A DNA stretch of 64,000 bases from Clostridia bacterium (GTDB lineage: Bacteria; Bacillota; Clostridia; Oscillospirales; Acutalibacteraceae), in the NCBI GenBank assembly GCA_022767925.1, contig JALENG010000033.1:16300-80299 (forward strand). Reading direction: 5' to 3'. Within the stretch, counting starts at the first letter, position 1. The number at the start of each line of letters is the position of its first letter. Under the pieces are notes generated by a model, which saw nothing but the letters and a program-made list of their open reading frames with translations, was not told the DNA's origin and searched no databases. A program made the position numbers and the translations under genes. Below, piece after piece: positions 27,182 through 49,458 of the stretch.

Positions 27182-27787
27182 ATGATGACCAAAAAAGAGA
27201 TCATCGCAAAATACACCCCCATAATCCGCCCTCATCTTTCTGAAAAGCGGTTTCAGCATTCGGTGAATGTGGCAAAAGAGGCCGGAAAGCTGGCGCAAAA
27301 ATATGGGGCCGATGTGGAAAAAGCGGTGACGGCGGGCATCCTCCACGATATTATGAAGGATACGCCCCCAGAGGAACAGTTGAAATTTATGGAGCAGTGG
27401 GGTATAATACTAACCGATGTGGAAAGGAATGCCCCGAAGCTCTATCATGCGATAAGTGCGGCCGGTTATCTGCAGTATGAACTGAATATAGAGGATCCGG
27501 AAATTCTGCACGCTGTGCGCTATCATACTACAGCGCGGGCGAATATGACACTGGTGGAAACCATCGTGTTTTTGGCTGATTTTATCAGTGCGGACCGCAC
27601 CTATTCCGGTGTGGAGCACATGCGGGAAAAGGCATACCGGGATCTGTACGATGCGGTTGTGGAGGGTCTCGCTTTTACCATTGCGGATCTGGCCAGCCAC
27701 CGTGCCCCTGTGCATCCGGATACCGTTGCGGCATTCAATCAAATTCTGCTGCAGCATGGTTCACACAAGAAAGGAAAATCATTATGA
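27182..27787 (+). CDS. yqeK: HD-domain protein YqeK (bis(5'-nucleosyl)-tetraphosphatase type)
   Basis: RFQHSVNV..HDIMKD HD motif. Conserved position after nadD. Start 27182 or 27185. Confidence 0.85.
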   Translation: MMTKKEIIAKYTPIIRPHLSEKRFQHSVNVAKEAGKLAQKYGADVEKAVTAGILHDIMKDTPPEEQLKFMEQWGIILTDVERNAPKLYHAISAAGYLQYELNIEDPEILHAVRYHTTARANMTLVETIVFLADFISADRTYSGVEHMREKAYRDLYDAVVEGLAFTIADLASHRAPVHPDTVAAFNQILLQHGSHKKGKSL

Positions 27788-28149
27788 CCCCCTGGGAAAT
27801 GACAAAATGGTGCGTGACCCTTTTGAATGAGAAAAAGGCGCACAATATTAAAGCGATTCACATCGAAGATATTTCTTCATTGGCGGACTACTTTGTTTTT
27901 GCCAACGGTACCAGCACCACACAGGTAAAAGCGCTGGCCGACCAAATCGAGATGAAAGGCATCGAAATGGGAGTAAAACCCCATCACATTGAGGGATACC
28001 AGTCAAACTCGTGGATCCTTTTGGATTACGGAACCGTTGTTATCCACATTTTTACGGAACAGGCCCGCTCTTTTTATGACCTGGACCGGCTATGGCAGGA
28101 CGGCGAAATTGTTTCGCTCGATTTCCTGCAGCATACGGATGTAGACTAA
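27784..28149 (+). CDS. rsfS: ribosome silencing factor RsfS
   Basis: 121 aa. [34 protein letters not shown]. Confidence 0.9.
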
Positions 28150-28168
28150 AGAGGAGGGCTCTTTGAAT

Positions 28169-30583
28169 ATGATCGAAAAATATGAACCGAAACGAATCGA
28201 ACCCTATTGGCAAAAACGGTGGGAAGAAACCGGTGCTTTTCACGCGGTAAACGGTTCCGACAAACCGAAATTCTTTGCTATGATTGAATTTCCCTACCCG
28301 TCGGGACAGGGGCTGCATGTAGGACATCCCCGTTCCTACACGGCTATTGACATTGTGGCCCGTAAGCGCCGTATGCAGGGGTACAATGTGCTGTATCCCA
28401 TCGGATGGGACGCTTTTGGCCTGCCCACCGAGAATTTTGCCATCAAAAACCATGTGCATCCGGCAGCTATCACCGCACAGAATATCGCGCACTTCAAGGC
28501 GCAGCTGCAAAGCCTGGGTTTCAGCTTCGACTGGTCCCGTGAGATTAACACCACGGATCCCGAATACTATAAATGGACCCAGTGGATTTTCCTGCAGCTT
28601 TTCAAGAAGGGCCTGGCCTATAAAAGCAAAACGACGGTAAACTGGTGCACCAGCTGCAAATGTGTACTGGCCAACGAGGAAGTCGTCAACGGCAAGTGTG
28701 AGCGCTGCGGCAGTGATGTGGTACAGAGAGAAAAAAGCCAGTGGATGCTGAAGATTACCGCTTATGCGGATCGTCTGATCGATGATCTGGATCTGGTGGA
28801 TTACCCGGAGCGCGTGAAAACACAGCAGCGCAACTGGATTGGACGTTCTCATGGTGCCGAAGTTGATTTCCCCACCACGGCGGGGGACAAGCTGACCGTC
28901 TATACCACCCGTCCGGATACCCTGTACGGCGTTACCTATATGGTTATGTCGCCGGAGCATCCTTACCTGAAGAATTGGGCCGACAAAATTGAAAATCTGG
29001 AGGAAGTCCGCGCTTATCAGGAAGAGGCCGCGAAAAAGTCTGATCTGGAGCGCACAGCGGATACCTCCAAAGAAAAGACCGGCGTATGTCTGCAGGGCGT
29101 TACCGCCATCAATCCGGTAAACGGAAAAGAAATCCCGATTTTTATCTCGGACTATGTTCTGATTTCTTACGGTACCGGTGCCATCATGGCCGTGCCGGCA
29201 CATGATACCCGTGACTGGGCTTTCGCCAAAAAGTTCAATCTGCCCATCATCGAGGTGGTAAAGGGCGGAAACGTGCAGGAAGAAGCCTTTACCGATTGCG
29301 CCACCGGGATCATGGTGAACTCCGGCATTCTGGACGGCCTGTCGGTGGAAGATGCCAAAGTACGTATTAAAGAATATCTGACGGAAAAGGGAATCGGGCG
29401 CGATAAGGTCAACTTCAAGCTGCGCGACTGGGTCTTTTCCCGCCAGCGCTATTGGGGCGAGCCCATTCCGATTGTGCACTGCGATACCTGCGGTTATGTA
29501 GCCATGCCCGAAGAGGAGCTGCCGCTGCGGCTGCCCGAAGTGGAATCCTATGAAACGACGGATTCCGGGGAATCTCCTCTTGCCAATATGCTGGATTGGC
29601 GGAATACCAAGTGCCCATGCTGCGGCGGACCGGCTCTGCGCGAGACCGATACAATGCCCCAGTGGGCTGGATCTTCCTGGTATTTCCTGCGTTATACGGA
29701 TCCGCACAACACGGAGGCACTGGCCAGCAGAGAAGCTCTGGACTACTGGACCCCTGTGGATTGGTACAATGGCGGCATGGAGCATACCACTCTGCACCTG
29801 CTGTACAGCCGTTTCTGGCACAAGTTCCTCTATGATATCGGAGTGGTTCCCACTCCGGAACCCTATGCGAAGCGCACCAGTCATGGGATGATTCTGGGAT
29901 CGAATCACGAAAAAATGAGCAAATCCCGCGGCAATGTGGTCAATCCGGATGCCATCGTGGACGAATACGGCGCCGACACTATGCGTCTGTACGAGATGTT
30001 CATCGGTGATTTTGAAAAAGCAGCTCCCTGGAGCGATGAGGGCATTAAGGGCTGCCGCCGGTTTATCGACCGTTTCTATAATCTGCAGAACATCCTGCAG
30101 GAGGGAGGACTCCGCCCTGAGCTGGAGACCATCTTCCATCAGACCATCAAAAAAGTGGGCGAGGATATTGAAACGCTGAAGTACAATACGGCTATCGCGG
30201 CGATGATGACGCTGATGAACGCCGTTTATGACAGCGGATCGATCACCCGCGAGGAAATGAAGATTTTCACCCTGCTGCTGTGTCCCTTTGCCCCGCATGT
30301 CTGTGAAGAGGTGTGGTCCGTTCACCATCTGGGTGATGGGCTTTGCTCTCTGGCGACCTGGCCGGAATACGATGAAGAAAAGTGCCAGGAGGCCATGGTT
30401 GAGATTGTCGTGCAGGTAAACGGTAAGCTGCGCGGCCGCATGAAGGTGAGCGCGGACATTTCCAAAGAGGAGGCCCTCGAAGCTGCCAAGAAGGAAGAGA
30501 AGGTGGCGGCGGAGATCAGCGGAAAGAGAATTGTAAAAGAAATCTACGTTCCGAAAAAGCTGGTCAATATCGTGGCAAAATAA
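28169..30583 (+). CDS. leuS: leucine--tRNA ligase
   Basis: HIGH-type motif GLHVGHP and KMSKSRGN. About 804 aa. Alternative TTG start at 28163. Confidence 0.95.
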
Positions 30584-30600
30584 GTCCGCTTCAGAATTGA

Positions 30601-30640
30601 AAAGAGGTTTGTCTCCATACAGGAGGCAAACCTCTTTTTT
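30601..30640 (+). terminator. intrinsic terminator after leuS
   Basis: 13-bp stem GAGGTTTGTCTCC/GGAGGCAAACCTC, 5-nt loop, TTTTTT. Confidence 0.8.
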
Positions 30641-30670
30641 GTGCCCCAATTTGGTATTTGGAAAGCATTT

Positions 30671-30709
30671 AAAAAAGATCCTGTGGGGAATTTCCCCACA
30701 GGATCTTTT
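30671..30709. terminator. bidirectional hairpin terminator (serves the minus-strand dap operon)
   Basis: AAAAGATCCTGTGGGG / CCCCACAGGATCTTTT perfect 16-bp arms, flanked by an A-run and a T-run. Confidence 0.75.
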
Positions 30710-30730
30710 CATCTTTTAGTCAATAGAAAA

Positions 30731-34280: not shown

Positions 34281-34418
34281 TTCCCTACCGAATTACGGAT
34301 CACAAATAATCGGTCAAATTTGCCGGAAATTTCCGTTTGTCCTTCACCTGTCTTCATCCATCGGAATTGAGAAAGATATAAATTTATGCAGAAAGAATGG
34401 ATTGTTTTGCAAAAAGAA

Positions 34419-36654
<2,236 letters not shown>

Positions 36655-36728: not shown

Positions 36729-37058
36729 ATGATGAATTTTCTTCCCCTTGAAGAAGCTGCCGCAACTGATGGCGGCTCGATGTGGATCATGATTGTGATC
36801 TATGCCGTCTTTATCGGTGCCCTGTATCTGATCTTCTTCCGTCCGCAGAGCAAACGGAAAAAGAAAGAGGAGCAAATGCGGAAAAACGCTCAGATCGGCG
36901 ATGAAATCACAACCATTGGCGGCATCTGCGGCCGTATTGTAGCCATTAAAGAGGATACTGATACGCTGATTATCGAGACCGGTTCCGATCGCAGTAAACT
37001 GCGTGTGAAGCGCTGGGCGATTGGCAGCGTGGATACCATCCATGATGACGCCGAGTAA
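36729..37058 (+). CDS. yajC: preprotein translocase subunit YajC
   Basis: 109 aa. One TM segment, then RPQSKRKKKEEQMRKNAQIGDEITTIGGICGRIV. Confidence 0.9.
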   Translation: MMNFLPLEEAAATDGGSMWIMIVIYAVFIGALYLIFFRPQSKRKKKEEQMRKNAQIGDEITTIGGICGRIVAIKEDTDTLIIETGSDRSKLRVKRWAIGSVDTIHDDAE

Positions 37059-37174
37059 TTCCTGACGGGTTCCTTTTTCTTTTATACACCGGATGGCATG
37101 GACTTCTCTTTTCCGGCATATATACAGAATAGATTCAGGTTCTGTATACATGTTGGAAAAGGGAGGTTTTTCTT

Positions 37175-37570
37175 TTGCTGCAAAACGGATGGAAACAGAA
37201 TATCAGGACCCTTCTGTTCGGATGGATTTTTGCCATTCTGATTTCGGCCCTGCTTTTAGGAATTGCCGCTGCCATTTTGGCTGCCGCTGGTACTTTGCCA
37301 TCGTCTCTTTTTTCCCCGATTGTTGTCATTTGCACCAGCGCCGGCGCTCTGCTGTCGGGATTCTGGGCGGGCAAGAGAAACCGCTCCCGCGGGATTCTGT
37401 GGGGACTGCTCTGTGGCTTTCTCATGCTGCTGACGGAAGTTCTGATCGGCGTGTGGCTGATGGTTCCCTCCTATCAGGATGGGCAAGCCGTCACGAAGGC
37501 TGCCGCCATGCTGATCAGCGGTGCCATCGGCGGAATTCTCGGTGCAAACCATACAGAAAAAATCAAATAA
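37175..37570 (+). CDS. small polytopic membrane protein (resembles the TIGR04086 family from memory)
   Basis: 131 aa with 3-4 hydrophobic segments. TTG start 8 nt after GGGAGG. Confidence 0.6.
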   Translation: MLQNGWKQNIRTLLFGWIFAILISALLLGIAAAILAAAGTLPSSLFSPIVVICTSAGALLSGFWAGKRNRSRGILWGLLCGFLMLLTEVLIGVWLMVPSYQDGQAVTKAAAMLISGAIGGILGANHTEKIK

Positions 37571-37594
37571 GGGCTTTTCTTCCTTGGGGCAGTG

Positions 37595-37603
37595 TGCTAT
37601 AAT
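37595..37603 (+). promoter_or_regulatory. extended -10 promoter element upstream of the SCIFF peptide gene
   Basis: TGcTATAAT at 37595-37603. No good -35 seen. Confidence 0.4.
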
Positions 37604-37647
37604 AAAGACAGCGTATTTATTGTTTAGTTGAAACGGAGGGATTCTTT

Positions 37648-37794
37648 GTGAAACAGATTAAAACTCTGAATCAGGCCAATCTGAAGGAAAGCGCCGTAAA
37701 GGGTGGCTGCGGCGAATGCCAGGCATCCTGCCAGTCCGCTTGCAAAACTTCTTGCACGGTTGCCAACCAGAAGTGCGAACACGCTGATAAATAA
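37648..37794 (+). CDS. six-cysteine peptide SCIFF (RiPP precursor), 48 aa
   Basis: Not in the ORF track. GTG start 7 nt after GGAGGG. Translation: MKQIKTLNQANLKESAVKGGCGECQASCQSACKTSCTVANQKCEHADK. Six Cys with the GGCGECQxSCQSACKTSC core typical of SCIFF. Confidence 0.88.
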   Translation: MKQIKTLNQANLKESAVKGGCGECQASCQSACKTSCTVANQKCEHADK

Positions 37795-37822
37795 TCGGTT
37801 TTCGTACCAAATATCAGGGCGC

Positions 37823-37849
37823 TAAGGGACAGCTTTGTACTGTCCCTTA
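37823..37849 (+). terminator. stem-loop between precursor and maturase (partial terminator or processing site)
   Basis: TAAGGGACAG / CTGTCCCTTA 10-bp stem, 7-nt loop, followed by AATTTT. Confidence 0.55.
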
Positions 37850-37876
37850 AATTTTGTGTAAATGGAGAAATTTTCT

Positions 37877-39244
37877 ATGATACATATGTATGAGCAGAAC
37901 GGGTACCGCATTGTGCTGGATACCAATTCCGGTGCCGTTCATGTAATGGATGAAATTCCCTACAAGCTCCTCTCTTATTTTCCGGACCGCATTCCCGAGC
38001 AGCTTCCGGAGGAGATCCGCTGCGCCATGGCTGCGGTTTATCCTGCGGAGCAGGTAGAGGAGGCTTTTTGCGAACTGCAGGAGCTGCAGAGAGAGAATAT
38101 GCTGTTTTCGGCCGATGAGTATGCAAAATTTGCCGATATGATGCAGGCGGCCCCCATCAAGTCCATGTGCCTGAATGTAGCCCACGACTGCAATCTGCGC
38201 TGTGAGTACTGCTTTGCCAGTAAAGGGGATTTCGGCGGAGAGCGGATGCTGATGCCCCTGGAAGTGGGGAAGAAGGCCATTGATTTTCTGATTGCCCATT
38301 CCGGCAGCCGCCACAATCTGGAAATGGATTTCTTTGGCGGAGAACCGCTGATGAACTTTGATGTGGTAAAGGAACTGGTTGCCTATGCCCGCAGCAAAGA
38401 AAAGGAATACAACAAGAATTTCCGGTTTACCATTACCACAAACGGACTGCTGCTGGATGACGAAAAAATTGAATTTATCAACCGTGAGATGTCCAACTGC
38501 GTTTTGTCGCTGGATGGCCGGAAAGAAGTGAATGACCGGCTGCGCGTCCGTGTAAACGGGGCGGGCTGCTATGACCGCATTGTGCCCCAGTTCCAAAAGC
38601 TGGTGGCCACCCGCAATGGCAAGGATTACTATGCCCGCGGAACCTTCACGAAATATAATCTCGATTTTACCGAGGATGTTCTGCATATGGCCGATCTGGG
38701 ATTTGACCAAATCAGCGTAGAACCGGTTGTTTCAGATGAAAAACTGGATTACTCCATTAAAGAAGAGGATCTGCCGCGCGTGTTTGAAGAATACGACCGT
38801 CTGGCAGAAACGATTGTGCGCGACCGCAGGAACGGCAAATACTACAACTTTTTCCATTTTGCCATCGACCTGAATCAGGGACCCTGTGCCATCAAGCGGC
38901 TTCGGGGATGCAGCTGCGGCAATGAATATGTGGCGATCACCCCGGAGGGCGATATCTATCCCTGCCATCAATTTGTGGGAAATGAAGAGTGGAAAATGGG
39001 GAACGTGATGGATGGTTCCCTGGACGTTGAAATGAAAAAGCGCTTTGCCAAAGCAAATGTATACGCCAAGGAAAAGTGCCAGAACTGCTGGGCTCGTTTT
39101 TACTGCAGCGGCGGCTGCAACGCCAACAACTGGGAATATGAGGGGGATATTCTGAAGGCTCATGATATTTCCTGCCAGTTGGAGAAAAAGCGAGTGGAAT
39201 GCGCGATTATGATTCAGGCAGCCCTGGCGGATCAGGAAGACTGA
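37877..39244 (+). CDS. radical SAM/SPASM peptide maturase (SCIFF maturase type)
   Basis: CNLRCEYCF radical SAM motif. C-terminal SPASM cysteines (CSCGNEY..CHQF; CQNCWARFYCSGGC). GGAG lies 9 nt before ATG 37877. The ORF-track start at 37862 lacks an SD. Confidence 0.88.
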   Translation: MIHMYEQNGYRIVLDTNSGAVHVMDEIPYKLLSYFPDRIPEQLPEEIRCAMAAVYPAEQVEEAFCELQELQRENMLFSADEYAKFADMMQAAPIKSMCLNVAHDCNLRCEYCFASKGDFGGERMLMPLEVGKKAIDFLIAHSGSRHNLEMDFFGGEPLMNFDVVKELVAYARSKEKEYNKNFRFTITTNGLLLDDEKIEFINREMSNCVLSLDGRKEVNDRLRVRVNGAGCYDRIVPQFQKLVATRNGKDYYARGTFTKYNLDFTEDVLHMADLGFDQISVEPVVSDEKLDYSIKEEDLPRVFEEYDRLAETIVRDRRNGKYYNFFHFAIDLNQGPCAIKRLRGCSCGNEYVAITPEGDIYPCHQFVGNEEWKMGNVMDGSLDVEMKKRFAKANVYAKEKCQNCWARFYCSGGCNANNWEYEGDILKAHDISCQLEKKRVECAIMIQAALADQED

Positions 39245-39473: not shown

Positions 39474-40121
39474 ATGGACATGCTGAAAATTACCGGATAC
39501 CACAATCGGGCATTTCCCAAAAAAGGAGCGATTCGGGGGGCTGTTTCCCGCCGATTAGCATGGATGCAGCACCATAAGGTCTTTGTTCTTTTCTTTTTCG
39601 GATACCTGGCTGCTTTTTGCTGCGGCACATTTTTCCATGAGGAAGGAGAGAGCTTTTCTCCTTTACTGCAGACCAATTTCCTTTCCCGTATGCAGCAGCC
39701 ATTTTGGATGGGTTTCTTGTCTTTCTTTGCCATTGTTTTTCTCTGGGAGATTGGCTGCTTCCTCTTTGGACTATCCCTGTGGGGATGGCTGTTTTCGCCG
39801 TGGATGCTCTTTTTCCGCGGCTACGGCGCCGGCGTAGTGGCGGGAAGCATGGTGACCTGTTATGGTTTGGGCGGGGTTTTCGGTTTTCTTCTGATTTTTC
39901 TTCCTGGTATGGCGGTAGAGGCATTCGCCTTTCTTCTGGAAACAGTGGAGAGTACATTCTGCTCTTTCTCGTTCTTTCGGAATCATAGTGACCGATCCTT
40001 TCTCCGCCGGTTTATCCGCCGAACCCTTATTACGACACTGATTTTGCTGATTTCTTCTCTTTTGCAGTTTTTGGGGTGCCTTTGGTTCGGTTCATGGTTT
40101 TTATCACAGTTCGTTCTGTAA
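39474..40121 (+). CDS. polytopic membrane protein, SpoIIM-like (tentative)
   Basis: 215 aa. Its layout loosely parallels SpoIIM/DUF95 (FFRGYGAGVVAG..FLPGMAVEAFAFLL). Confidence 0.4.
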   Translation: MDMLKITGYHNRAFPKKGAIRGAVSRRLAWMQHHKVFVLFFFGYLAAFCCGTFFHEEGESFSPLLQTNFLSRMQQPFWMGFLSFFAIVFLWEIGCFLFGLSLWGWLFSPWMLFFRGYGAGVVAGSMVTCYGLGGVFGFLLIFLPGMAVEAFAFLLETVESTFCSFSFFRNHSDRSFLRRFIRRTLITTLILLISSLLQFLGCLWFGSWFLSQFVL

Positions 40122-40227
40122 TCTCTGCCGGTTTGATCGGCATTGGGCTATGTCTCGGTGTGGATTTGACCGGTTAAGAGTGAGAAGAATATGTCCTTTC
40201 ATTTCTTTGTTTAGGAGCTGATTTCCC

Positions 40228-41262
40228 TTGTCTATTTTCAGTGCCCGTTTTACCAGACCCGGTCCAGGTGTCAGTAAGGATGAACCGGAGAGCCCTGCGA
40301 TTGTACGGTTCTTTCAGATTTTGGGGCGCAAGTTCTCAAAATTTATCCAGTTGAATTTGCTTTTTCTGATTCCCGCTGTTATTACAGCCGCGCTTTGCAT
40401 CGGTCTGCTTTTGCTACCGGGCGTTCCGCGTCTGGCGCTCTCTCTGAATCTTTCCGGGGGCGAACCTTTTATTTTGAATCTTTACGAGATGTACCTGGTG
40501 CCGCTGCCGCTGGTTCTTCTGTATCCGTTTACCGCCGGACTTACTTACGTAACCCGGAATTTTGTCCGGGAGGAGCACGCTTTCATCTTCTCCGATTCTG
40601 TGGAGCAGATCAAGAAGAATTTTAAACAGTTCTTCCTCAATGGGCTTTTGCTCTATGCTTTCTATGTGATTTTCTCCTTTGCTGCCCTTTACTATTCCCA
40701 AACCTTAAGCAGCTGGTATTCGTGCATTCCGCTGGGCCTGTGCTTATTGATGTTTGTTGTCATGATCTTCGCCCAGTACTATATGCCGGTTATGCTGGTT
40801 ACCTTTGAATTAACACTAAAGCAGGCCTATAAAAATGCGTTTATCTTTGCACTGGTTGGTCTGGGCAGGAATTTTCTGATCACCATTGTCTTCCTGATCC
40901 TCGCTTTCCTCTTCTATATGAGCGATATTATGGGGCTTACTGCTCTGCTTACCATTTTCTTTGTGCTGTTGCTGTTCTTTTCCTTCTGTTCGTATGTGGT
41001 CAATTTTGCCGTGTATCCGGTTATCGAGCGGTATTTGATCGAACCCTACTACAATCAGGGCAAAAAGAAAGCAGCACCAGCAGAAGCGAGCACACCGGCC
41101 GAATTGGAAGACAACGAATTCCTTCGCGATGAACTCGACGAGGAGTACGAAGAAAAGAAACCGGAATTCGTCTACATTAACGGAAAACTGGTAAAAAGAG
41201 AAGTGGCAGAAGCGGAGCAACTATTTATGGATGCTGGCCGCGAGCGCGAGAATAAAAAGTGA
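40228..41262 (+). CDS. DUF624 (YesL-like) membrane protein with a charged C-terminal tail
   Basis: N-terminus FTRPGPGVSKDEPE..VRFFQILGRKF..LNLLFLIP, then multiple TM segments. The last ~70 aa are rich in E, K and D. Confidence 0.55.
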   Translation: MSIFSARFTRPGPGVSKDEPESPAIVRFFQILGRKFSKFIQLNLLFLIPAVITAALCIGLLLLPGVPRLALSLNLSGGEPFILNLYEMYLVPLPLVLLYPFTAGLTYVTRNFVREEHAFIFSDSVEQIKKNFKQFFLNGLLLYAFYVIFSFAALYYSQTLSSWYSCIPLGLCLLMFVVMIFAQYYMPVMLVTFELTLKQAYKNAFIFALVGLGRNFLITIVFLILAFLFYMSDIMGLTALLTIFFVLLLFFSFCSYVVNFAVYPVIERYLIEPYYNQGKKKAAPAEASTPAELEDNEFLRDELDEEYEEKKPEFVYINGKLVKREVAEAEQLFMDAGRERENKK

Positions 41263-41266
41263 GAAG

Positions 41267-41298
41267 AATCCGCCTGATTTTTCAGGCGGATTTTTTTC
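41267..41298 (+). terminator. intrinsic terminator
   Basis: AATCCGCCTG / CAGGCGGATT stem followed by TTTTT. Confidence 0.8.
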
Positions 41299-41440
41299 GC
41301 CCTTTTTGCAGAATCTTTGCAGAAAGAAAGAAAAATAATATTGAAGGACTCAAATAAAACATGTATACTATGGATATACATAGCATTGAGGTCGGGATTA
41401 TGCCCATCTCATTATTCTTTTAGAAACCAGGTGGAGTTTT

Positions 41441-42529
41441 ATGAAACATTCTCGCAGAAATCACTATTCATCGTATCAACAAAGGAGACGGATCCGCCAT
41501 GCTGTGATTCTCTCCACAGCTGCCATACTGGTAGCTCTGGTTGTGGCCGCTGTGTCGCTTGTTTTTCGCAATCGTTCTGCCCCGATTGAGGAGGAGAGTG
41601 CATCTTCTGCCGCTTCGTCTGTCTCGTCTGAATCCAGTGTATCTGAGTCCAGTGTGATGGAATCCGGGAACTCGCTTTCCTCTGTCTCCTCCGAGAGTTC
41701 CTCCTCTCAAAGTTCCCAAGAGAGCAGTACCGGTCCTTCGTCAGAATCCTCCGTCCAACCGTCCGGAAATGATCTGCGCATCACCGACCGGCCTAAAATG
41801 AGCGTACTGGGGGATGAGGAAAAAGTTATTTACCTGACCTTTGACGATGGTCCCTGTGATACTACCCGTGAGCTGCTGGCACTGCTGGCCCAATATGATG
41901 CAAAGGCTACTTTCTTCGTTTGCTGCCAGACAGCCAATCAGGAAAAATATATCGATACCCTGAAGGACTGCTCTGACCAGGGGCATGCCGTAGCCGTTCA
42001 CACCTATTCCCACAAAATGGATGAAGTTTATTCCTCTCCGGAAGCCTATTACCAGGATTTCCTCAAAATGTATAATCTCATCGAGGAGGTAACCGGAAAA
42101 AAACCGGCCAACTTTTTCCGTTTTCCGGGCGGAAGTAAAAACAGTTATAACGAGCGTTCCCGGAAAGCGATTGTTGAAGAAATGGTGGGGCGTGGCTTTA
42201 TCTATTATGACTGGGATGGAGATTCGGGCGATGCTTCCGGAAACCATGTCCCCGCCGAAACCATCTATCAAAATGTGATGACCTCTATCCATAAGGGCTG
42301 CAATCTCATTCTTCTGCACAATACTTTTGGAAAAGAAACAACTATTGAGGCCCTGCGCCGGATTCTCCCGGAAGCAAAGGCAGAGGGGTACACCTTCAAG
42401 GCTCTCGATGGCACGCTGGATCCCACGCATTACTATATTTTTACCGCAGATCTCTTTATTGATGCGGCACTGGACAATTCGGATCTGCAGCTGAGCGACT
42501 GGAGAATGGCAAAACTGGAAAACCAGTGA
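41441..42529 (+). CDS. polysaccharide deacetylase (NodB homology) with TM anchor and Ser-rich linker
   Basis: YLTFDDGP and HTYSH motifs. N-terminal TM segment, then about 65 aa of Ser/Glu-rich sequence. Confidence 0.85.
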   Translation: MKHSRRNHYSSYQQRRRIRHAVILSTAAILVALVVAAVSLVFRNRSAPIEEESASSAASSVSSESSVSESSVMESGNSLSSVSSESSSSQSSQESSTGPSSESSVQPSGNDLRITDRPKMSVLGDEEKVIYLTFDDGPCDTTRELLALLAQYDAKATFFVCCQTANQEKYIDTLKDCSDQGHAVAVHTYSHKMDEVYSSPEAYYQDFLKMYNLIEEVTGKKPANFFRFPGGSKNSYNERSRKAIVEEMVGRGFIYYDWDGDSGDASGNHVPAETIYQNVMTSIHKGCNLILLHNTFGKETTIEALRRILPEAKAEGYTFKALDGTLDPTHYYIFTADLFIDAALDNSDLQLSDWRMAKLENQ

Positions 42530-42591
42530 ACACCGTCCCATTGCGCCAGGTTCATGAAACAGGCAAAATTCTATCGCAAAATACACCAATC

Positions 42592-42641
42592 AAAAAGAAC
42601 CTGTATTCTCCCCATAAACGGAGGCATACAGGTTCTTTTTA
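42592..42641. terminator. bidirectional terminator between convergent genes
   Basis: AAAAGAACCTGTA ... TACAGGTTCTTTTT. Confidence 0.7.
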
Positions 42642-42670
42642 TTTGGGATCATTGGGAAAACAGAGAATTC

Positions 42671-43372
42671 TTATTCCTCATCGCTTTCCTTTGACTCGGG
42701 ATAAACAGAAGTGTAGGCCAGAATATCCATATCCCCATCGTAGACTTCCACATCAATCGGTGTTTTTTCCAGCCCGGCAAATTCATCGTACAGACACACC
42801 AGATTCCAAACAGCCTTGCAGATCACTTCATCGTTCCCACTGCCATAGGAGATGCTCTCGGCGTAAATGGTCAGAACGGTTAATTCTTCATTGATGGACA
42901 GGGAATAGACCGAATCAAAATCATCGTCATCATTCAGCTTTTCCACCGATTTCCGAACATTCGCCTTCAGATTTTTCAAAAAGACTTCGTAGTCACTTTT
43001 ATAAAACGTATACAGATACGTTTTATCCCCGGTTTTCTCCACGGAGATGGCCCCATATTTTTCGGCGTCTTCCTCTATTTCCGAAAATTCGGTGTCTCCA
43101 AAATAACTGACACTGACTTCCACCTGGACTTTTTCTTCCTCTGTCTGTGAAGAAAGGTCAGAAGAGGATTCCGAAGAGGATTCTTCTGAAGAATTTTCCT
43201 CCGGCAAGCTAGGAGAAGGATCCGGAGTGGGGGTGGGGGGGATACTCTCCACCTCTTCCGATTGTTCAGATAGAGAAGATTCCCCGGAGCTCTCCTCGGC
43301 ACTTTGGCAAGCGGTAAAAATCAGCATAGAACTCAGCAGCAACGCAAAGAATAATGCAAATCGTTGTTTCAT
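42671..43372 (-). CDS. hypothetical lipoprotein with Ser/Glu/Pro-rich linker
   Basis: Signal peptide and lipobox (LLLSSMLIFTAC) when started at ATG 43372. No family recognised. Confidence 0.6.
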   Translation of the reverse strand: MKQRFALFFALLLSSMLIFTACQSAEESSGESSLSEQSEEVESIPPTPTPDPSPSLPEENSSEESSSESSSDLSSQTEEEKVQVEVSVSYFGDTEFSEIEEDAEKYGAISVEKTGDKTYLYTFYKSDYEVFLKNLKANVRKSVEKLNDDDDFDSVYSLSINEELTVLTIYAESISYGSGNDEVICKAVWNLVCLYDEFAGLEKTPIDVEVYDGDMDILAYTSVYPESKESDEE

Positions 43373-43559
43373 AAATGGTAATTCACTCTCCTCTTTCAAA
43401 ACAAAATGGGGAAGGGCACATCTTTTTGCGGCCATATCTATATACTGAGTATACCGCAAACGGCAAAAATGGGCAAGTTTTTTTCAAAATCGCTATGGTA
43501 AACAACAGGAAAATCATGTATACTGAGAAATATAAGCGAGAAAAAGGGAGAAGTTTCAA

Positions 43560-44369
43560 ATGTATGGTGCTATTTTGGGGGATATTGCCGGCTCACGCTT
43601 TGAATTCAGTCACCCGCAGGGATTTTGCGCCAAAAAAGAAGTTCTTTTTGCCCCTTCCAGCCGCTATACAGATGATACGGTTATGACTATTGCAACCAAA
43701 TACGCTGTGCTGACCGGTACTTCGTATGCAAAAGCCTATGGCTCTTTTGGACGCCGCTATAAAAAAGCGGGATACGGCCCTTTATTCCTGACATGGCTTG
43801 ATAACCGCAGCGAGAAGGGTTATAACAGCTACGGAAACGGGGCCGCCATGCGTGTCAGTTTTTTGGGACACTACTATAACAGCCTGAGGGAAGTGGAAAG
43901 GGAAGCAAAGAAAAGTGCAGAATGCACCCATAACCATCCGGAGGGAATTAAAGGGGCTGTCTGCGTGGCCGGTTGCGTGTTTCTGGCCGAACACGGGGCA
44001 ACAAAAAAACAAATTCTGCACTATGCAAAAGAATTTGGATATCATAAATTGTACCCTTTATGGGTACGGCGACCTTTTGAAAAATTCGATCTGACCTGTC
44101 AGCACTCAGTTCCTCTTGCACTGCGCTGCTTTCTGGAGAGCAACAGCTGGGAGGAATGCATCCGCAATGTGTACAGCGTCCACTGTGATACCGATACTAT
44201 AGCAGCTATTGCCGGTGGAATTGCCGACTCTTTTTTCCACGGCACTGGTTTTGAAGAAGAACGCCTGCTCCGCCATTATTTAGTGAAACCCACCGCCCAG
44301 GGAACCACTGATACTTTTTTGTATGATTGGGCCGTAAAGGAATGGAGGAATCCGACTTATGATCGTTGA
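43560..44369 (+). CDS. ADP-ribosylglycohydrolase family protein
   Basis: GDIAGSRFEF, YTDDTVMT and CDTDTIAAIAGGIA metal-site motifs are all present. 269 aa. Confidence 0.85.
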   Translation: MYGAILGDIAGSRFEFSHPQGFCAKKEVLFAPSSRYTDDTVMTIATKYAVLTGTSYAKAYGSFGRRYKKAGYGPLFLTWLDNRSEKGYNSYGNGAAMRVSFLGHYYNSLREVEREAKKSAECTHNHPEGIKGAVCVAGCVFLAEHGATKKQILHYAKEFGYHKLYPLWVRRPFEKFDLTCQHSVPLALRCFLESNSWEECIRNVYSVHCDTDTIAAIAGGIADSFFHGTGFEEERLLRHYLVKPTAQGTTDTFLYDWAVKEWRNPTYDR

Positions 44370-44871
44370 AACATATCAGTCCCCGGTTGTCAAAAAGACA
44401 CTGGATGAAGGGAAAACCTATTACGCTTTGCCGAGCATCAATCTGGATAAAGCCTACCGCTGTTTAATTGATATGCTTCATCTGGACTGCCAATGCCCGA
44501 TTTTCGGCGTTCTTCGCGGATACAAGCAATGCACAAATGGGGCAGGGACCAGCAGCATTAAGCTGATTCTGGATGTGCCGGATGAAGAAATCCACCTCAC
44601 CGAATATGATGATTGGGCCGAGTTTCTGCACAATATGAAATATATCAATCCGGTGAATTACCGCTCGGTAAATCCCACGTATCTGGAATCACTGCCGCAA
44701 AAGCATCTGGATGAAATTATCGAATCGCTGACAACTCCCCGGCCTCCGAAAAAATATAAAATTCCACAGGTTGTGCTTGAGCGAATTGATCCTGCTTGGG
44801 TGATCGGTTCAGAAGTACCCGCCGCCGATAATTCATTAGTGGATAAAATCAAGGACCTTTTTCAGCGATAA
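44359..44871 (+). CDS. hypothetical protein, translationally coupled to the ADP-ribosylglycohydrolase (possibly DUF3841-like)
   Basis: 170 aa. Its ATG lies inside the last codons of the ARH gene (11-nt overlap), with GGAGG 10 nt upstream. The block LILDVPDEEIHLTEYDDWAEFL resembles DUF3841 from memory only. Confidence 0.6.
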   Translation: MIVETYQSPVVKKTLDEGKTYYALPSINLDKAYRCLIDMLHLDCQCPIFGVLRGYKQCTNGAGTSSIKLILDVPDEEIHLTEYDDWAEFLHNMKYINPVNYRSVNPTYLESLPQKHLDEIIESLTTPRPPKKYKIPQVVLERIDPAWVIGSEVPAADNSLVDKIKDLFQR

Positions 44872-44883
44872 ATTAATAGAAGT

Positions 44884-44920
44884 AAAAAGCAGGATTTTCC
44901 ATAGAGAATCCTGCTTTTTC
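44884..44920. terminator. bidirectional terminator
   Basis: AGCAGGATT / AATCCTGCT stem, flanked by AAAAA and TTTTT. Confidence 0.75.
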
Positions 44921-44942
44921 ATTTGGGCATCCATTTTTGGTA

Positions 44943-45953
44943 TTATGATTTTTTCTTTTTGACAGAAAAATTTGCCAGCGGATTGGAATTTGCCGCCTTT
45001 TTCATTTGATCATCGGACAAGTGGGTATAGATTTCTGTCGTTCCAAGATTTTCATGCCCCAAAATGTCTTTCAGCACACGAATATCCACATTCCCGTGCT
45101 GATACATCAGGGTGGCCGCCGTATGCCGCAGTTTGTGTACCGAGTATCCGGCGGACATCTCGATCCGATCCAGATATTTTTTCACAATGTATTGCACGGT
45201 TTTGGGGCTGATCCGCTTTTTCAAACGGCTCAAAAACAGGGCGTCTTTGTCCTGCACTCCATCTTTGGGACGGACGGCAATATACTGATCAATTGCGTCT
45301 AAACAGGCCTGATTCAGGTAGACAATCCGTTCTTTGTTTCCTTTTCCAAGAATACGGACGGTCTGACTGTGATGGCGGATATCCGAGAGATTGATGCCTA
45401 CCAGTTCCGATAACCGCATGCCACAGTTTAAAAATAAAGTTAAAATACATCGGTCACGCTCGGCATCCGGGCCATCCACCGATTGGATCAGCTCCATACT
45501 TTGCTCTAATGTCAGGTATTTGGGAAGGGATTTTGCCCGCTTGGGTGATTCGAGGGCTTCCAAGGGATTGGCCTGCAAAAGACCCTTCTGATCGGTCAAA
45601 AATTGATAGAAACGCCGCAAACTGGAAGTTTTCCGCAGCCGTGTATTGGCCGTATTTTGGCGATCAATGACAAGATAATTCATATAAGACAAAACCGTTT
45701 GAAAATCGACCGCCAATACCTGATCGTTGGATACCGCAGCGGCATCAATTTCCTCAAACGGAAGATCGGATGGCACATCATGCAGACATTCTTTGCGATA
45801 ATAGCGAAAAAAGGTGCGCAAATCCACGCCGTATTCCCAAACCGTTTTCGGCGAGCGGCCGCGTACGGTAAGCTGGTACTGCAAAAATTCCGCCGCCAAA
45901 GCGGGAATTTGTAGAAGTATATTTCGGTCAAATGTACGAAGATCTGTAGGCAT
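44943..45953 (-). CDS. tyrosine recombinase (XerC/XerD-like integrase family)
   Basis: C-terminal catalytic region with HKLRHTAAT and LGHENLGTTEIYTH. N-terminal SAM-like core-binding domain. 336 aa. Confidence 0.88.
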   Translation of the reverse strand: MPTDLRTFDRNILLQIPALAAEFLQYQLTVRGRSPKTVWEYGVDLRTFFRYYRKECLHDVPSDLPFEEIDAAAVSNDQVLAVDFQTVLSYMNYLVIDRQNTANTRLRKTSSLRRFYQFLTDQKGLLQANPLEALESPKRAKSLPKYLTLEQSMELIQSVDGPDAERDRCILTLFLNCGMRLSELVGINLSDIRHHSQTVRILGKGNKERIVYLNQACLDAIDQYIAVRPKDGVQDKDALFLSRLKKRISPKTVQYIVKKYLDRIEMSAGYSVHKLRHTAATLMYQHGNVDIRVLKDILGHENLGTTEIYTHLSDDQMKKAANSNPLANFSVKKKKS

Positions 45954-46041
45954 ATTGGAAATTCATCCGAATAGCCGGCCGGTCGTAAACTGTGCGGCAA
46001 AACCCGATAATCCATTTAGTCAAATGTTTCCATACGGGTGT

Positions 46042-46059
46042 ATTATCACAATTATCACA
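46042..46059. repeat. tandem 9-nt repeat ATTATCACA x2
   Basis: Exact duplication. The minus strand reads TGTGATAAT twice (extended -10-like), about 90-105 nt upstream of the recombinase ATG. Confidence 0.7.
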
Positions 46060-46097
46060 TAGGATGCAGATCCAGCCGAATTCGTTTTTCCTCCCTC

Positions 46098-46133
46098 CTG
46101 AATTATACAAAATTTTAATTTTGTATAATTCAG
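46098..46133. repeat. 36-bp near-perfect palindrome upstream of the recombinase gene
   Basis: CTGAATTATACAAAATTTTAATTTTGTATAATTCAG. 17-bp arms with one central mismatch. Confidence 0.85.
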
Positions 46134-46274
46134 TATATCAAAAACCGGGAGCGAAGTCAATCCTCTCTCCCGATTATTCTATTTGGCTTATGGGCAGTAG
46201 CTGGATCGGCCACAATAAACCTGGCATAGACAAAAATGCAGATCTACTTTTTATGGGCCCGGTAAAATTGGGAT

Positions 46275-46907
46275 TTAGGCTTTTATGGCAAACCGTAACC
46301 ACGAAATGATATTCTCGTTATTACCCTTTTTCAGTATCCAGTTTACTACATCCAGTTTGGACGACACTTTGGCTGTCATCGCAGGATTCAATTTCTCAAG
46401 CAGCTCCACCATTTCCACCTGGGACTCTTTTCGTATTTTTTTGAGCAATTCTGTATCCTTCAGTTTTCTTTCGGCTTCTTCTCTGGGATATCCCTGCCCA
46501 AAAGGTTCAGAAAACAGCGCTTGAATGGTTGCTTTGCAATTTTCGGTTCCCTTCCAGGTATAATCTTCTCCCAAGGGCAATGAAATCGCATTGCCGTTAT
46601 TGATCTGCGCAAACAGATAAGCATCTCGGGGTGACGGTGCATATCCACAGATAACCCCCGGCATGCTGTTGCAGGCAAGCATCATCCCCTGGCCTGAGGA
46701 ACACCCGGTAATAACAAAATCAATGGATCCGCTTGCCAGCAAAAGACCTATGGCAACAGATATTTCCATGTATGAATAATTAACTTGCTCATTTAAGTAG
46801 CAGCCAAAATTTATAACCTCATGTCCTTTGGCACATTCGCACGTTGTTTCATACAGAAGGTGATTCTTCTCCTTTTGGGAACTTGCCTGTATAATTCCGA
46901 TTCTCAT
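46275..46907 (-). CDS. RpiB/LacA/LacB family sugar-phosphate isomerase (long form)
   Basis: ITGCSSGQGMMLACNSMPGVICGY parallels the RpiB active-site loop. GGAGG precedes the ATG. Confidence 0.65.
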   Translation of the reverse strand: MRIGIIQASSQKEKNHLLYETTCECAKGHEVINFGCYLNEQVNYSYMEISVAIGLLLASGSIDFVITGCSSGQGMMLACNSMPGVICGYAPSPRDAYLFAQINNGNAISLPLGEDYTWKGTENCKATIQALFSEPFGQGYPREEAERKLKDTELLKKIRKESQVEMVELLEKLNPAMTAKVSSKLDVVNWILKKGNNENIISWLRFAIKA

Positions 46908-47140
46908 TTTTTCCTCCAGGCGTAAATTATGCGCTGCCGAACTGTGCCAAAATTATAGCATACCGGGAAAGCGGTTTCAAATCTCTTTCGATGATTTTCT
47001 AAAAAGGAATCCCGGCTGGCAGCTTTAAAGCCAGGAAACTGCCAAGAATCCGGGTCTTCGGTATTCTTGACAGCTTCCCGCTCTCAGCACTTTTCGATGA
47101 CCAAAAGGGACTTTTATTCTCCCGCTTTTTTGACTAACGA

Positions 47141-47174
47141 TTCTGTGGGCTTCTATTCTGTTCTGTGGGCTTCT
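47141..47174. repeat. direct repeat TTCTGTGGGCTTCT x2 at exactly 20-nt spacing
   Basis: Copies at 47141-47154 and 47161-47174, in the 305-nt gap upstream of the RpiB-like gene. Confidence 0.75.
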
Positions 47175-47212
47175 GTAGTGAAATTTCCCTTAACAAACGC
47201 TCTCCTGATGCG

Positions 47213-48394
47213 TTATTCCTGGCGCAGTGCATCCACCGGGCGCATATCCGCGGCCCGTTTTGCCGGCCATAGACTGAACAATACGGCACTTATAATGGAC
47301 AGGAAAACCGCACTGATCACAATTTCCGTGCGGATGTGCACGGTAATCCCAAAGGAAACCGCCAGAATTCCGCACACTAAAAGTCCCACGGCAATTCCTG
47401 CAGCGGATCCCACTCCGGAGAGCAGCAGCGCTTCTGATAAAAAGTCCAGCATGATCCGGCCTTTTCCTGCTCCCAAGGCCTTTTTAATTCCAATTTCCTG
47501 TTTCCGCTCCTGAATGGAGATAAACATGATCGTCATAATGCTCAACGAGGCTACCAGCAGAGAAATTCCGCCCACCGCACTAAAAACCAGCGTACATAGG
47601 TTCAGAATATTTTTTAAAGATTCTTTTTGTCCCGCCAGATTCCCCGCACTGTATCCATCCACTCCAACGACCCGGTTCAATTCCTCTACCACTTCTTCTC
47701 CGATCCAATCAGCCGAAACACCGTCTTCCGTTTTGACGGCAATCTGATCAAAATTGGAACGTCCGCTGTACAGCTGCATGGTCGTATACGGAAGATAGAT
47801 AAAACTGGGAATATAGCCGCTTAACAGATTTTGCAGCAGACCGGTTCCCGTTTTTACCACTCCCGCCACAGTAAACGTGTACGATTCATTCCCAATCTCT
47901 ATTTGAAGCTGTTTTCCCACCGAATCAATGGTATCGAAGGCCTGCTTGGATAATGACTCGTCGATCAGGCAGACATCGCGGTACTGCATACAGTCACTGG
48001 CATTGAATACCCGGCCGGCCACAATCTGCAGCGAAATGATATGATCTGCACGGTAGCTGACCCCCCACAGCATCGACTCACATTCCACATCCCCGGCCGC
48101 TACTTCTCCCGTCTGCATAAGGACCGGAGAAGTGTCGGCCACCCCTTCCATGGAATTGATCCGGAAGAGTTCTTCCTCGCCCAGGGGATCAAAACGGGTG
48201 TCTTCCGATGTGATCATCAGGCTGCTCAGTCCCAGGCTCTCCATTTCATTGCCCAGCATATCAGTTCCATACTGGGAGATGACGCCAATCAGAATCACCG
48301 AAGCGACACCGATCAGAATTCCCAGCATGGTGAGAAAAGAGCGGAGTGGTTTTCGAAAAAGCACACGAATGGCTTCTCCCATCGAATCAATCAT
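47213..48394 (-). CDS. ABC transporter permease, FtsX/MacB-type
   Basis: 393 aa. N-terminal TM segment, large extracytoplasmic domain, C-terminal FtsX TM bundle (IGIKKALGAGKGRI). Confidence 0.85.
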   Translation of the reverse strand: MIDSMGEAIRVLFRKPLRSFLTMLGILIGVASVILIGVISQYGTDMLGNEMESLGLSSLMITSEDTRFDPLGEEELFRINSMEGVADTSPVLMQTGEVAAGDVECESMLWGVSYRADHIISLQIVAGRVFNASDCMQYRDVCLIDESLSKQAFDTIDSVGKQLQIEIGNESYTFTVAGVVKTGTGLLQNLLSGYIPSFIYLPYTTMQLYSGRSNFDQIAVKTEDGVSADWIGEEVVEELNRVVGVDGYSAGNLAGQKESLKNILNLCTLVFSAVGGISLLVASLSIMTIMFISIQERKQEIGIKKALGAGKGRIMLDFLSEALLLSGVGSAAGIAVGLLVCGILAVSFGITVHIRTEIVISAVFLSIISAVLFSLWPAKRAADMRPVDALRQE

Positions 48395-49395
48395 GCCGTT
48401 GTCTTCTCCTCTTTTACGCAGTACACCGGGGAACCGGACCGACAGTTTTCCGGCTCTAAAATGATCCGTTCCCCGTCCAGCAATCCGCCGGTAATCTCCA
48501 TTCCCTCTTTGTACTCCTCTCCCGTTTCCACATCTCTGCGAACGGCTGTCTGATTGTTCTCGGCGACGAAGACATACGAAGTTCCCTCCTCATCCTGACA
48601 GAGCGCCTCCATCGGAATGACCAGGCAATTCTCCTTTTCTGCCGTTATAATCTCTGCACGGGCACCGTATCCGGGTTTCAGCACCTGATCAGGGTCCTCC
48701 GGTATCAATATGACCTCGAATACCGAGTCTTTTCCGGCCGTAGAGGCCTGTGTAACGGCACTCGAGCTGATACGGGAGACATTGGCCGATAGTGTGGTAT
48801 CACGAAATGCCTCTCCGGACAGCAGCGCATACTGTCCGCAGAATACCGCGGCTATCTTTTTCTCACTGATGGAAACACGCACTACCAGATTCTCATTATC
48901 GGCAAGTGAGCAGACCTTCTCCCCTTCGTTCAGGATATCACTCTCCTCTGCACAGACGTCTGTCACCGTGCCGTTCATCGGGGACAGAATGGTGGTGCGC
49001 TCTTCCAGGGCCATGAATTTATACCAGGTTTGGCTTTTATCCAGATGAATCCTTCCGGCTGTCATCAGGGCAGAACGCAGGGTATCCCCGTAATCCCCCA
49101 TTTCGGCGATCCTGTCCTCTCCCACCATCACAACCTGGCAAAGGGGTTCCCCCTTTGCCACCTCATCCCCCTTTTCCACATACCATTTCTCAATCCACAG
49201 GATTTCTTCCGCTTTGACCGTCTCTGATCCATTTCTCTCCACCTCACCCATACAGTATACCGTTTGGTGTGCGGTCTGTGGATGAAGCACCATCGTTTTC
49301 ACTTCCGGAATCGAGGATGAATACCAATATCCGCCAGCCATGATCCCCAAAATTACAAGCACCGTGCCCAAAAGTAAAACACCATATTTTTTCAT
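48391..49395 (-). CDS. HlyD-family periplasmic adaptor / membrane fusion protein
   Basis: 334 aa. Signal anchor plus barrel-sandwich hybrid and beta-barrel regions. ATGA overlap with the permease. Confidence 0.8.
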   Translation of the reverse strand: MKKYGVLLLGTVLVILGIMAGGYWYSSSIPEVKTMVLHPQTAHQTVYCMGEVERNGSETVKAEEILWIEKWYVEKGDEVAKGEPLCQVVMVGEDRIAEMGDYGDTLRSALMTAGRIHLDKSQTWYKFMALEERTTILSPMNGTVTDVCAEESDILNEGEKVCSLADNENLVVRVSISEKKIAAVFCGQYALLSGEAFRDTTLSANVSRISSSAVTQASTAGKDSVFEVILIPEDPDQVLKPGYGARAEIITAEKENCLVIPMEALCQDEEGTSYVFVAENNQTAVRRDVETGEEYKEGMEITGGLLDGERIILEPENCRSGSPVYCVKEEKTTA

Positions 49396-49458
49396 CGATC
49401 TCTCCTCCTGCCTTTCTATTGTGGCAGAAGAACCGGAAAAAATACGGTGTTTTTTCTT

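Follow-up and report, generated by a model that had tools for sequence, protein, structure and literature searches.

A probable SCIFF precursor and maturase operon in a Candidatus Heritagella contig, with a conserved hairpin between its two genes

Does an open reading frame (ORF) of 48 codons, begun by GTG and lying just ahead of a radical S-adenosylmethionine (SAM)/SPASM enzyme gene, encode a genuine modified-peptide precursor, and of which family? The question arises at positions 37648-39244 of a 64,000 nt stretch (the window) of the Clostridia contig JALENG010000033.1, where an earlier note had proposed a six-cysteine SCIFF peptide and its maturase. Judged by sequence comparison, the two genes, scfA and scfB, form a canonical SCIFF precursor/maturase operon on the chromosome of a Candidatus Heritagella (Clostridia), a reading to which we give a probability of about 0.93. 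The pair is an ordinary intact copy of a well-known system, correctly identified and already known: SCIFF pairs are found in most Clostridia and are named by standard, current NCBI annotation models. The features of the two genes are:

37635-37640, + strand: scfA ribosome-binding site GGAGGG, 7 nt before the GTG
37648-37794, + strand: scfA, SCIFF precursor, 48 aa plus stop, GTG start (TIGR03973, PF13165)
37648-37701, + strand: scfA leader, about residues 1-18, boundary set by analogy with CteA (PMC8326336)
37702-37791, + strand: scfA core, residues 19-48, with six cysteines plus Thr34 and Thr37
37864-37867, + strand: scfB ribosome-binding site GGAG, 9 nt before the ATG at 37877
37877-39244, + strand: scfB, radical SAM/SPASM SCIFF maturase, 455 aa (TIGR03974, alignment with CteB)

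The short ORF is present where it had been placed, and its product, (M/V)KQIKTLNQANLKESAVKGGCGECQASCQSACKTSCTVANQKCEHADK (48 residues), is exactly the peptide quoted at the time. It had also been called unlisted; it is indeed absent from the ORF list that was supplied, but only because of the length threshold of that list, and it is listed once ORFs of at least 30 aa are admitted. No in-frame start codon lies farther upstream of the GTG, homologues start at the same residue, and GGAGG-type sites are found at the equivalent position upstream of scfA in homologous loci. Cysteines occur at positions 21, 24, 28, 32, 36 and 43, and threonines at 6, 34 and 37. The proposed SCIFF identity was borne out by hidden Markov model (HMM) searches, with 80.9 bits against TIGR03973 ('six-cysteine ranthipeptide SCIFF'; cut-off 50, E = 4e-23) and 81.7 bits against Pfam PF13165 (SCIFF; cut-off 27, E = 3e-23), and in the family HMM test the match spans model positions 1-43 of 43. 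ScfA carries the six-cysteine core of the family pattern (about 45 residues), GGCGxCQxSCQSACKTSCTVxNQxCE, and agrees with the family consensus at all core positions that are invariant across 73 homologues. Its homologues fall into 2292 protein clusters; NCBI gives the nearest of them (98% identical) the name 'six-cysteine ranthipeptide SCIFF', and many public metagenomic contigs already have the identical peptide as a called PF13165 gene. On these comparisons the ORF is far beyond chance.

The gene that follows had been described as carrying CNLRCEYCF plus SPASM cysteines; both are present, and it ends at 39244. Its longest ORF form starts at 37862, but the true start is almost certainly the ATG at 37877, because GGAG lies 9 nt upstream of it; (A/C)GGAG is found at the equivalent position in related scfA-scfB spacers. 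The MIH... start of CteB, the maturase of Clostridium (Acetivibrio) thermocellum, aligns to Met1 of this 455-aa version. Gene calling gives the same length for three of six related metagenome loci (L001-L003), and 450-452 aa for L004-L006. ScfB scored 731.8 bits (cut-off 425) against TIGR03974, 'thioether cross-link-forming SCIFF peptide maturase', so that peptide and enzyme both exceed the profile cut-offs by which the earlier note had proposed to check them. Against the exception model NF040492 ('not_ScfB') it reached 575.9 bits, under the cut-off of 855. No other radical SAM peptide-maturase equivalog model was above its cut-off; the generic SPASM model TIGR04085 was passed, and domain matches were obtained to Radical_SAM, Fer4_12 and SPASM (PF13186).

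The radical SAM CX3CX2C motif corresponds to Cys105/109/112 within CNLRCEYCF (nt 38189-38212), and the SPASM ligands (nt 38909-39175) are Cys345/363/414 for auxiliary cluster 1 (AC1) and Cys401/404/410/433 for auxiliary cluster 2 (AC2). The ligands of CteB are C104/C108/C111 for the radical SAM cluster, C344/C362/C413 for AC1 and C400/C403/C409/C432 for AC2 (PMC10177961). All ten cysteines (10/10) are kept in ScfB and, as far as the alignment tells, all three [4Fe-4S] sites are intact. Residues 1-448 align with the CteB crystal structures 5WGG/5WHY (E = 5e-185), and residues 1-100 align to CteB's N-terminal region, in which a single gap of 4 residues falls on the CteB side. In the crystal structure this region is a recognition element (RRE) of the kind found in enzymes acting on peptides that are made by ribosomes and modified after translation (RiPPs) (PMC8326336), and by homology ScfB has an RRE-type leader-binding region at its N-terminus.

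The two genes lie on the same strand and adjoin, with an 82-nt spacer. A SCIFF peptide gene is expected to have a TIGR03974 radical SAM gene no more than 500 bp away (PMC5300114), and scfA falls well within that distance. The pair had been thought intact, and the short spacer, the full-length maturase and the complete set of cluster cysteines agree with this. ScfB is 100% identical to a protein of a Candidatus Heritagella metagenome-assembled genome (Bacillota; Clostridia), the peptide and the gene pair recur in Heritagella and other Oscillospiraceae, and the lineage of the window is that expected of a SCIFF host, i.e., Clostridia. All testable defining features of SCIFF and of ScfB were found in the membership tests. 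SCIFF has been given as an example of a small gene overlooked by ORF callers yet readily recognised by TIGR03973 (PMC5300114), and its conservation in gut Clostridia is documented (PMC7738495; bioRxiv 10.1101/2025.02.12.637840).

If the peptide is functional, then its sequence might be expected to be under selection. A sample of 86 related loci was compared, and codon differences were counted between the window gene and 73 distinct scfA sequences. In 80 of the 86 loci scfB is immediately preceded, on its own strand, by a SCIFF ORF (78 by the strict core pattern and 2 with the variant GGCKEC), and one further locus is cut short by the end of its contig. In the core (codons 19-44) there are 785 synonymous and 59 non-synonymous differences, and in the leader (codons 2-18) 494 and 348, respectively. 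The search pattern itself dictated ten core positions, although it had to be relaxed in only 2 of 81 usable loci; ten others (G19, G20, Q25, Q29, K33, T37, V38, N40, Q41 and E44) are invariant without being forced by it, and each of these is encoded by 2-4 different codons. Because the core differences are mostly synonymous, and invariant residues have varied codons, strong purifying selection acts on the peptide and not on the RNA. This codon pattern is strong indirect evidence and, with the ribosome-binding site and the candidate promoter described below, suggests that scfA is translated.

These results also settle whether the 48-codon ORF could have arisen by chance or go untranslated, or the pair have decayed. 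The short length of the ORF and its GTG start would suit such a reading, but the HMM E-values of about 1e-23, the purifying selection on the peptide, the good ribosome-binding site and a full-length maturase with all ligands leave it next to no probability, and it is already effectively refuted.

The scfA sequences vary at a few points. Start codons among the 73 distinct genes are ATG in 68, GTG in 4 and TTG in 1; GTG is found in the Heritagella loci and one other (the non-ATG loci being L007-L009, L054 and L060), while the identical ScfA peptide of metagenome contigs L001-L006 starts with ATG. Gly22 is replaced by Lys in two Lachnospiraceae loci, L070 and L084, giving the GGCKEC variant. Thr34 is replaced by Val in L013 and L024 (core CKVSCTV), and Thr37 is invariant in all 73.

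What would the enzyme do to this peptide? The partner had been said to install thioether cross-links. This stands with a refinement, as the links are non-alpha thioethers; SCIFFs are now classed as ranthipeptides rather than sactipeptides because the link is S-C(gamma) (PMC8326336). The leader of CteA is bound as a beta-strand by the N-terminal RRE of CteB, and one SPASM cluster of CteB has an open iron able to bind a substrate cysteine (PMC8326336). Selenocysteine substitution in the homologues PapB and Tte1186 placed the cross-linking Cys on AC1, and thioether formation is a formal two-electron oxidation started by hydrogen abstraction by the 5'-deoxyadenosyl radical (PMC10177961). Tte1186a and CteA each acquire a single Cys32-Thr37 thioether in vitro, and a Cys32-Thr34 link was reported after co-expression in E. 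coli (PMC8326336).

The ScfA of the window has the donor Cys32 as well as Thr34 and Thr37, the two candidate acceptors. By analogy with CteA/CteB and Tte1186a/Tte1186, the RRE region of ScfB would bind the leader (about residues 1-18) as a beta-strand, the radical SAM cluster would cleave SAM to the 5'-deoxyadenosyl radical, and this would take a hydrogen atom from a core Thr side chain. The Cys32 thiolate, held on the open iron of AC1, would then capture the carbon radical to form an S-C(gamma) thioether (-2 Da), with either Thr37 (as in vitro) or Thr34 (as in E. coli co-expression) as the acceptor. From the same analogy we infer that ScfA is a ranthipeptide with an S-C(gamma) link. The Thr34Val variants, together with the invariant Thr37, may bear on the published discrepancy over the acceptor.

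The enzyme superfamily and a Cys-rich precursor are shared with sactipeptide-type antimicrobial bacteriocins (C-alpha thioethers, as in subtilosin or thuricin), and the pair could be read as encoding one of these; SCIFF was at first grouped with sactipeptides (PMC10114670), and genome miners often label it 'sactipeptide-like' (PMC7738495). Thermocellin (CteA), however, has an S-C(gamma) link and lacks sactionine fragmentation (PMC8326336; PMC10114670), no immunity or ABC-exporter gene adjoins scfAB, and ScfB scores far under the sactisynthase cut-offs, all of which makes a bacteriocin very improbable. An AlbA/SkfB/RumMC-type maturase was rejected in the same searches, ScfB reaching 124 bits on the RumMC model against a cut-off of 720.

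How the two genes might be expressed is indicated by two elements flanking scfA:

37595-37603, + strand: candidate sigma-A promoter of scfA, extended -10 TGcTATAAT (by eye and by comparison)
37823-37859, + strand: terminator-like hairpin TAAGGGACAG-CTTTGTA-CTGTCCCTTA followed by AAUUUUGUGU (stem-loop at 37823-37849; centroid fold)

The -35 sequence of the candidate promoter is weak (TTTTCT, 37575-37580) and, for this reason, the promoter was not called by the built-in scan, which covers sigma-70-type sites. Even so, of 74 distinct 120-nt regions preceding scfA, across genera, 58 contain the exact motif TGnTATAAT, at a median of 45.5 nt before the start codon (shuffled regions: mean 0.8, maximum 4), versus only 1 of 78 regions upstream of scfB.

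The hairpin starts 28 nt after the scfA stop codon and ends 27 nt before the scfB start. A perfect hairpin with a T-rich tail occurs in 45 of 76 distinct scfA-scfB spacers, compared with 0.73 +/- 0.9 in dinucleotide shuffles, and for 95% of the 76 the fold is stronger than in mononucleotide shuffles (z < -2). Across 27 aligned Oscillospiraceae-type spacers the inner stem, AGGGAC/GTCCCT, does not change; the loop and flanks vary, and the outer stem pairs covary (UA/AU/CG). The window has a single copy of AGGGAC-N4-14-GTCCCT (0.02 expected), and 32 of the 86 loci have this motif, once per locus and always in the scfA-scfB spacer. The Lachnospiraceae loci have a different, nested hairpin in its place. 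Rfam holds no family matching the 5' untranslated region or the spacer hairpin (window at the gathering threshold; 37500-37950 at E<=1), and no description of the hairpin was found in a literature search on SCIFF and its neighbours, which was not aimed at hairpins or terminators.

In the arrangement proposed, a strong and probably constitutive extended -10 promoter 45-55 nt upstream would drive scfA, and the GC-rich hairpin would stop or stabilise most scfA transcripts. A minor read-through fraction would be translated into ScfB from its own ribosome-binding site, there being no promoter of its own, and precursor would thus greatly exceed enzyme. Since the hairpin lies between the genes and the promoter before scfA only, scfB is most likely expressed by read-through past a leaky terminator or 3'-end stabiliser.

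The hairpin might instead be a complete terminator, or a structural accident, and scfB be transcribed independently, with no attenuated operon. The spacer of the window taken alone is not significantly structured (z = -1.48), and a promoter for another sigma factor could escape a scan limited to sigma-70-type sites. Independent transcription is nevertheless improbable given how seldom TGnTATAAT precedes scfB and how often scfA, the excess of hairpins over chance (45/76 against about 0.7), and the closeness of the genes, with just 82 nt between them and the hairpin ending 27 nt from the scfB start.

The genes upstream of scfA belong to a conserved neighbourhood:

37175-37570, + strand: conserved neighbour encoding a TIGR04086/DUF3792 small membrane protein, 131 aa, TTG start
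36729-37058: yajC, upstream of the DUF3792 gene
35524-36654: tgt, upstream of yajC
34386-35447: queA, upstream of tgt

Synteny with yajC and DUF3792 was scored by jackhmmer on the ORFs of each locus, tblastn at 1e-5 being too insensitive. Of 70 informative loci, 48 have a DUF3792 ORF immediately upstream of scfA, and 46 have yajC upstream. All loci with the linkage are of the Oscillospiraceae type, and it is absent from Lachnospiraceae loci. A literature search for SCIFF together with yajC, DUF3792 or TIGR04086 found nothing relevant, and the body of a metatranscriptome paper that came up does not mention SCIFF. As the scfA promoter lies between, the DUF3792 gene is a separate transcription unit, and the linkage is lineage-specific synteny, not functional evidence. 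Two overlapping + strand ORFs in different frames occupy this position in the window, 37093-37602 and 37175-37570 (DUF3792). In related contigs, callers give there either a 164-aa product without a Pfam match or a 138-139-aa DUF3792 product, a sign that the frame or the start may have been miscalled in some public annotations.

Downstream of scfB are a 215-aa membrane ORF, which occupies the place of a SpoIIM-family gene in relatives, a DUF624 protein gene and a polysaccharide deacetylase gene. No protease, ABC exporter or immunity gene adjoins scfA-scfB. A MacB-like permease plus adaptor at 47213-49395 was considered as an exporter and judged unlinked, being 8 kb away on the opposite strand, past unrelated genes.

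The role of the SCIFF peptide had been described as still unclear, and this holds in part; knock-outs point to a quorum-sensing-like or sporulation-related role (PMC8102284; PMC8326336). As cited there, disruption in C. beijerinckii (Chen et al. 2020) lowered sporulation genes and raised agr, which was read as quorum sensing, and work in C. ljungdahlii too indicated a quorum-sensing-like or sporulation-related role (PMC8326336; PMC8102284). The evidence for a role rests on the single study of Chen et al. 2020, as cited in three sources (PMC8326336; PMC8102284; bioRxiv 10.1101/2025.02.12.637840). On this basis the modified peptide may act as a conserved signal in cell physiology (quorum-sensing-like; sporulation, metabolism) and not as an antibiotic, which is the least certain step of the scheme.

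The peptide could also be a constitutive intracellular or membrane housekeeping factor, concerned with redox or metal handling or linked to Sec/YajC, and not a secreted signal. Several observations favour this: a consensus extended -10 promoter is kept from genus to genus, the adjoining genes include no protease, exporter or immunity gene, the 26-residue core is near-invariant across families while the enzyme falls to 55% identity, about two thirds of loci have yajC and the DUF3792 gene immediately upstream, and the active SCIFF form is unknown according to reviews (PMC8326336). They have to be set against the C. beijerinckii knock-out transcriptomics, read as quorum sensing (PMC8326336; PMC8102284), the absence of the yajC/DUF3792 linkage from Lachnospiraceae, and the scfA promoter that separates scfA from these genes, so that the linkage is possibly mere synteny. 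On balance a housekeeping factor is possible but doubtful.

A bolder version brings in the hairpin. The invariance of its stem at the sequence level exceeds the needs of a generic terminator, and because the stem is invariant across genera in which the synonymous sites of scfA are saturated, it could be a specific site at which a DNA-binding regulator, an RNase or an RNA-binding protein acts to set the precursor to enzyme ratio. When the hairpin is considered along with the conserved constitutive promoter, the yajC-DUF3792 linkage and the missing exporter and protease, SCIFF might be a regulated intracellular or membrane housekeeping factor and not a secreted signal. As a whole we regard this proposal as rather unlikely.

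Several points weigh against the view of scfA-scfB as a canonical operon making a modified signal peptide. Both the operon and the peptide modification are read from sequence alone in this organism, and the GTG start of scfA is a minority form (4 of the 73 distinct genes). The acceptor residue is disputed between Thr37 and Thr34, and the fate of the other five Cys and the removal of the leader are unresolved in the literature (PMC8326336). The 82-nt spacer of the window is not by itself unusually folded, as its z-score indicates, its U-tract is interrupted, and the case for the hairpin is comparative. Read-through from scfA into scfB is deduced only from the absence of a promoter before scfB. 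The quorum-sensing evidence is carried over from distant Clostridium species, and the lack of an adjoining protease or exporter is awkward for a secreted signal.

Five loci of the sample (L037, L049, L053, L056 and L057; scfB at 5001-6340) carry a genuine ScfB, but no SCIFF core turned up in six-frame searches reaching about 5 kb to each side of the gene. Three that were tested (L037, L049 and L056) score 700-714 bits with TIGR03974 and remain below the not_ScfB cut-off. Their assignment to the NF040492 'orphan' paralogues was rejected on these scores. None of the five shows yajC/DUF3792 synteny. In L049, scfB is flanked by an EF-Ts-like gene (by eye) and by an unidentified ORF of 307 aa. In these five lineages scfA may be unlinked or lost.

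Gene order farther downstream of scfB differs from that of relatives. In L001-L005 (8000-12147) SpoIIM-like, XerD-like recombinase, DUF624, CwlD-type amidase and RadA genes follow, all on the + strand. The corresponding part of the window (39474-51620) has on the - strand a Xer-like recombinase (44943-45953), RadA (49459-50829) and CwlD (50664-51620), with a deacetylase, an ADP-ribosylglycohydrolase and the MacB-like permease plus adaptor interposed, which indicates a local inversion or insertion. Elsewhere in the window, the longest ORF of its own region (28052-30712, - strand, 886 aa) has no family match and is the shadow of a leucyl-tRNA synthetase gene; the real gene, for which the ORF list gives a TTG start and 806 aa, is at 28163-30583 on the + strand. 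The region of about 375 nt upstream of leuS (within 27700-28250) gave no Rfam match at E<=1, T-box included.

For the window, the value of the pair is small: a small gene of the sort lost from length-thresholded ORF tracks has been annotated correctly, and the lesson is that the TIGR03973/PF13165 models are worth running on short ORFs. The locus gives no special handle on the questions that attach to the family (mature form, near-invariant core, role). Mildly new are the by-products of the comparison, namely the hairpin with its invariant stem, the consensus promoter that is placed ahead of scfA only, and the five scfB genes without scfA; these lead to testable, modest hypotheses on how the precursor to enzyme ratio is set.

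Among known systems, the first SCIFF pair characterised in vitro was Tte1186a/Tte1186 of Caldanaerobacter subterraneus (PMC8326336). By description, Tte1186 shares with ScfB three [4Fe-4S] clusters and their ligand pattern (PMC10177961) and forms a single Cys32-Thr37 thioether; its host is a thermophile, unlike that of the window. PapA/PapB (freyrasin) and QhpD/QhpC are related radical SAM/SPASM thioether synthases making non-alpha (beta/gamma) links, but their substrates (CX3D repeats and an enzyme subunit, respectively) are unrelated to the SCIFF core, and on the PapB and Qhp models ScfB reaches 275 and 258 bits, under the cut-offs of 340 and 453. The NF040492 'not_ScfB' orphan maturases are a close paralogue family; as the 575.9 bits of ScfB fall below the cut-off of 855, and a SCIFF gene adjoins, the enzyme of the window is a true ScfB.

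The closest likeness is to CteA/CteB (thermocellin) of C. thermocellum, which has the same precursor length class and gene order. The numbering of Cys21/24/28/32/36/43 and of Thr34/Thr37 is identical in CteA and ScfA, and ScfB aligns with CteB over residues 1-448, with all radical SAM, AC1 and AC2 cysteines kept. The window pair differs in having a GTG start of scfA, several changes in the leader (the variable part of the family), an extra Cys347 near the AC1 ligand Cys345, and an uncultured gut Heritagella as host. There is no sign of chemistry different from that of CteA/CteB. In nisA-nisB and sboA-albA, a hairpin stands between a small precursor gene, which is highly expressed, and the promoterless modification gene that comes after it. 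By analogy, the most economical reading of scfA-hairpin-scfB is this familiar RiPP layout, yielding far more precursor than enzyme, with the difference that in SCIFF loci the stem sequence AGGGAC/GTCCCT is itself conserved across genera.

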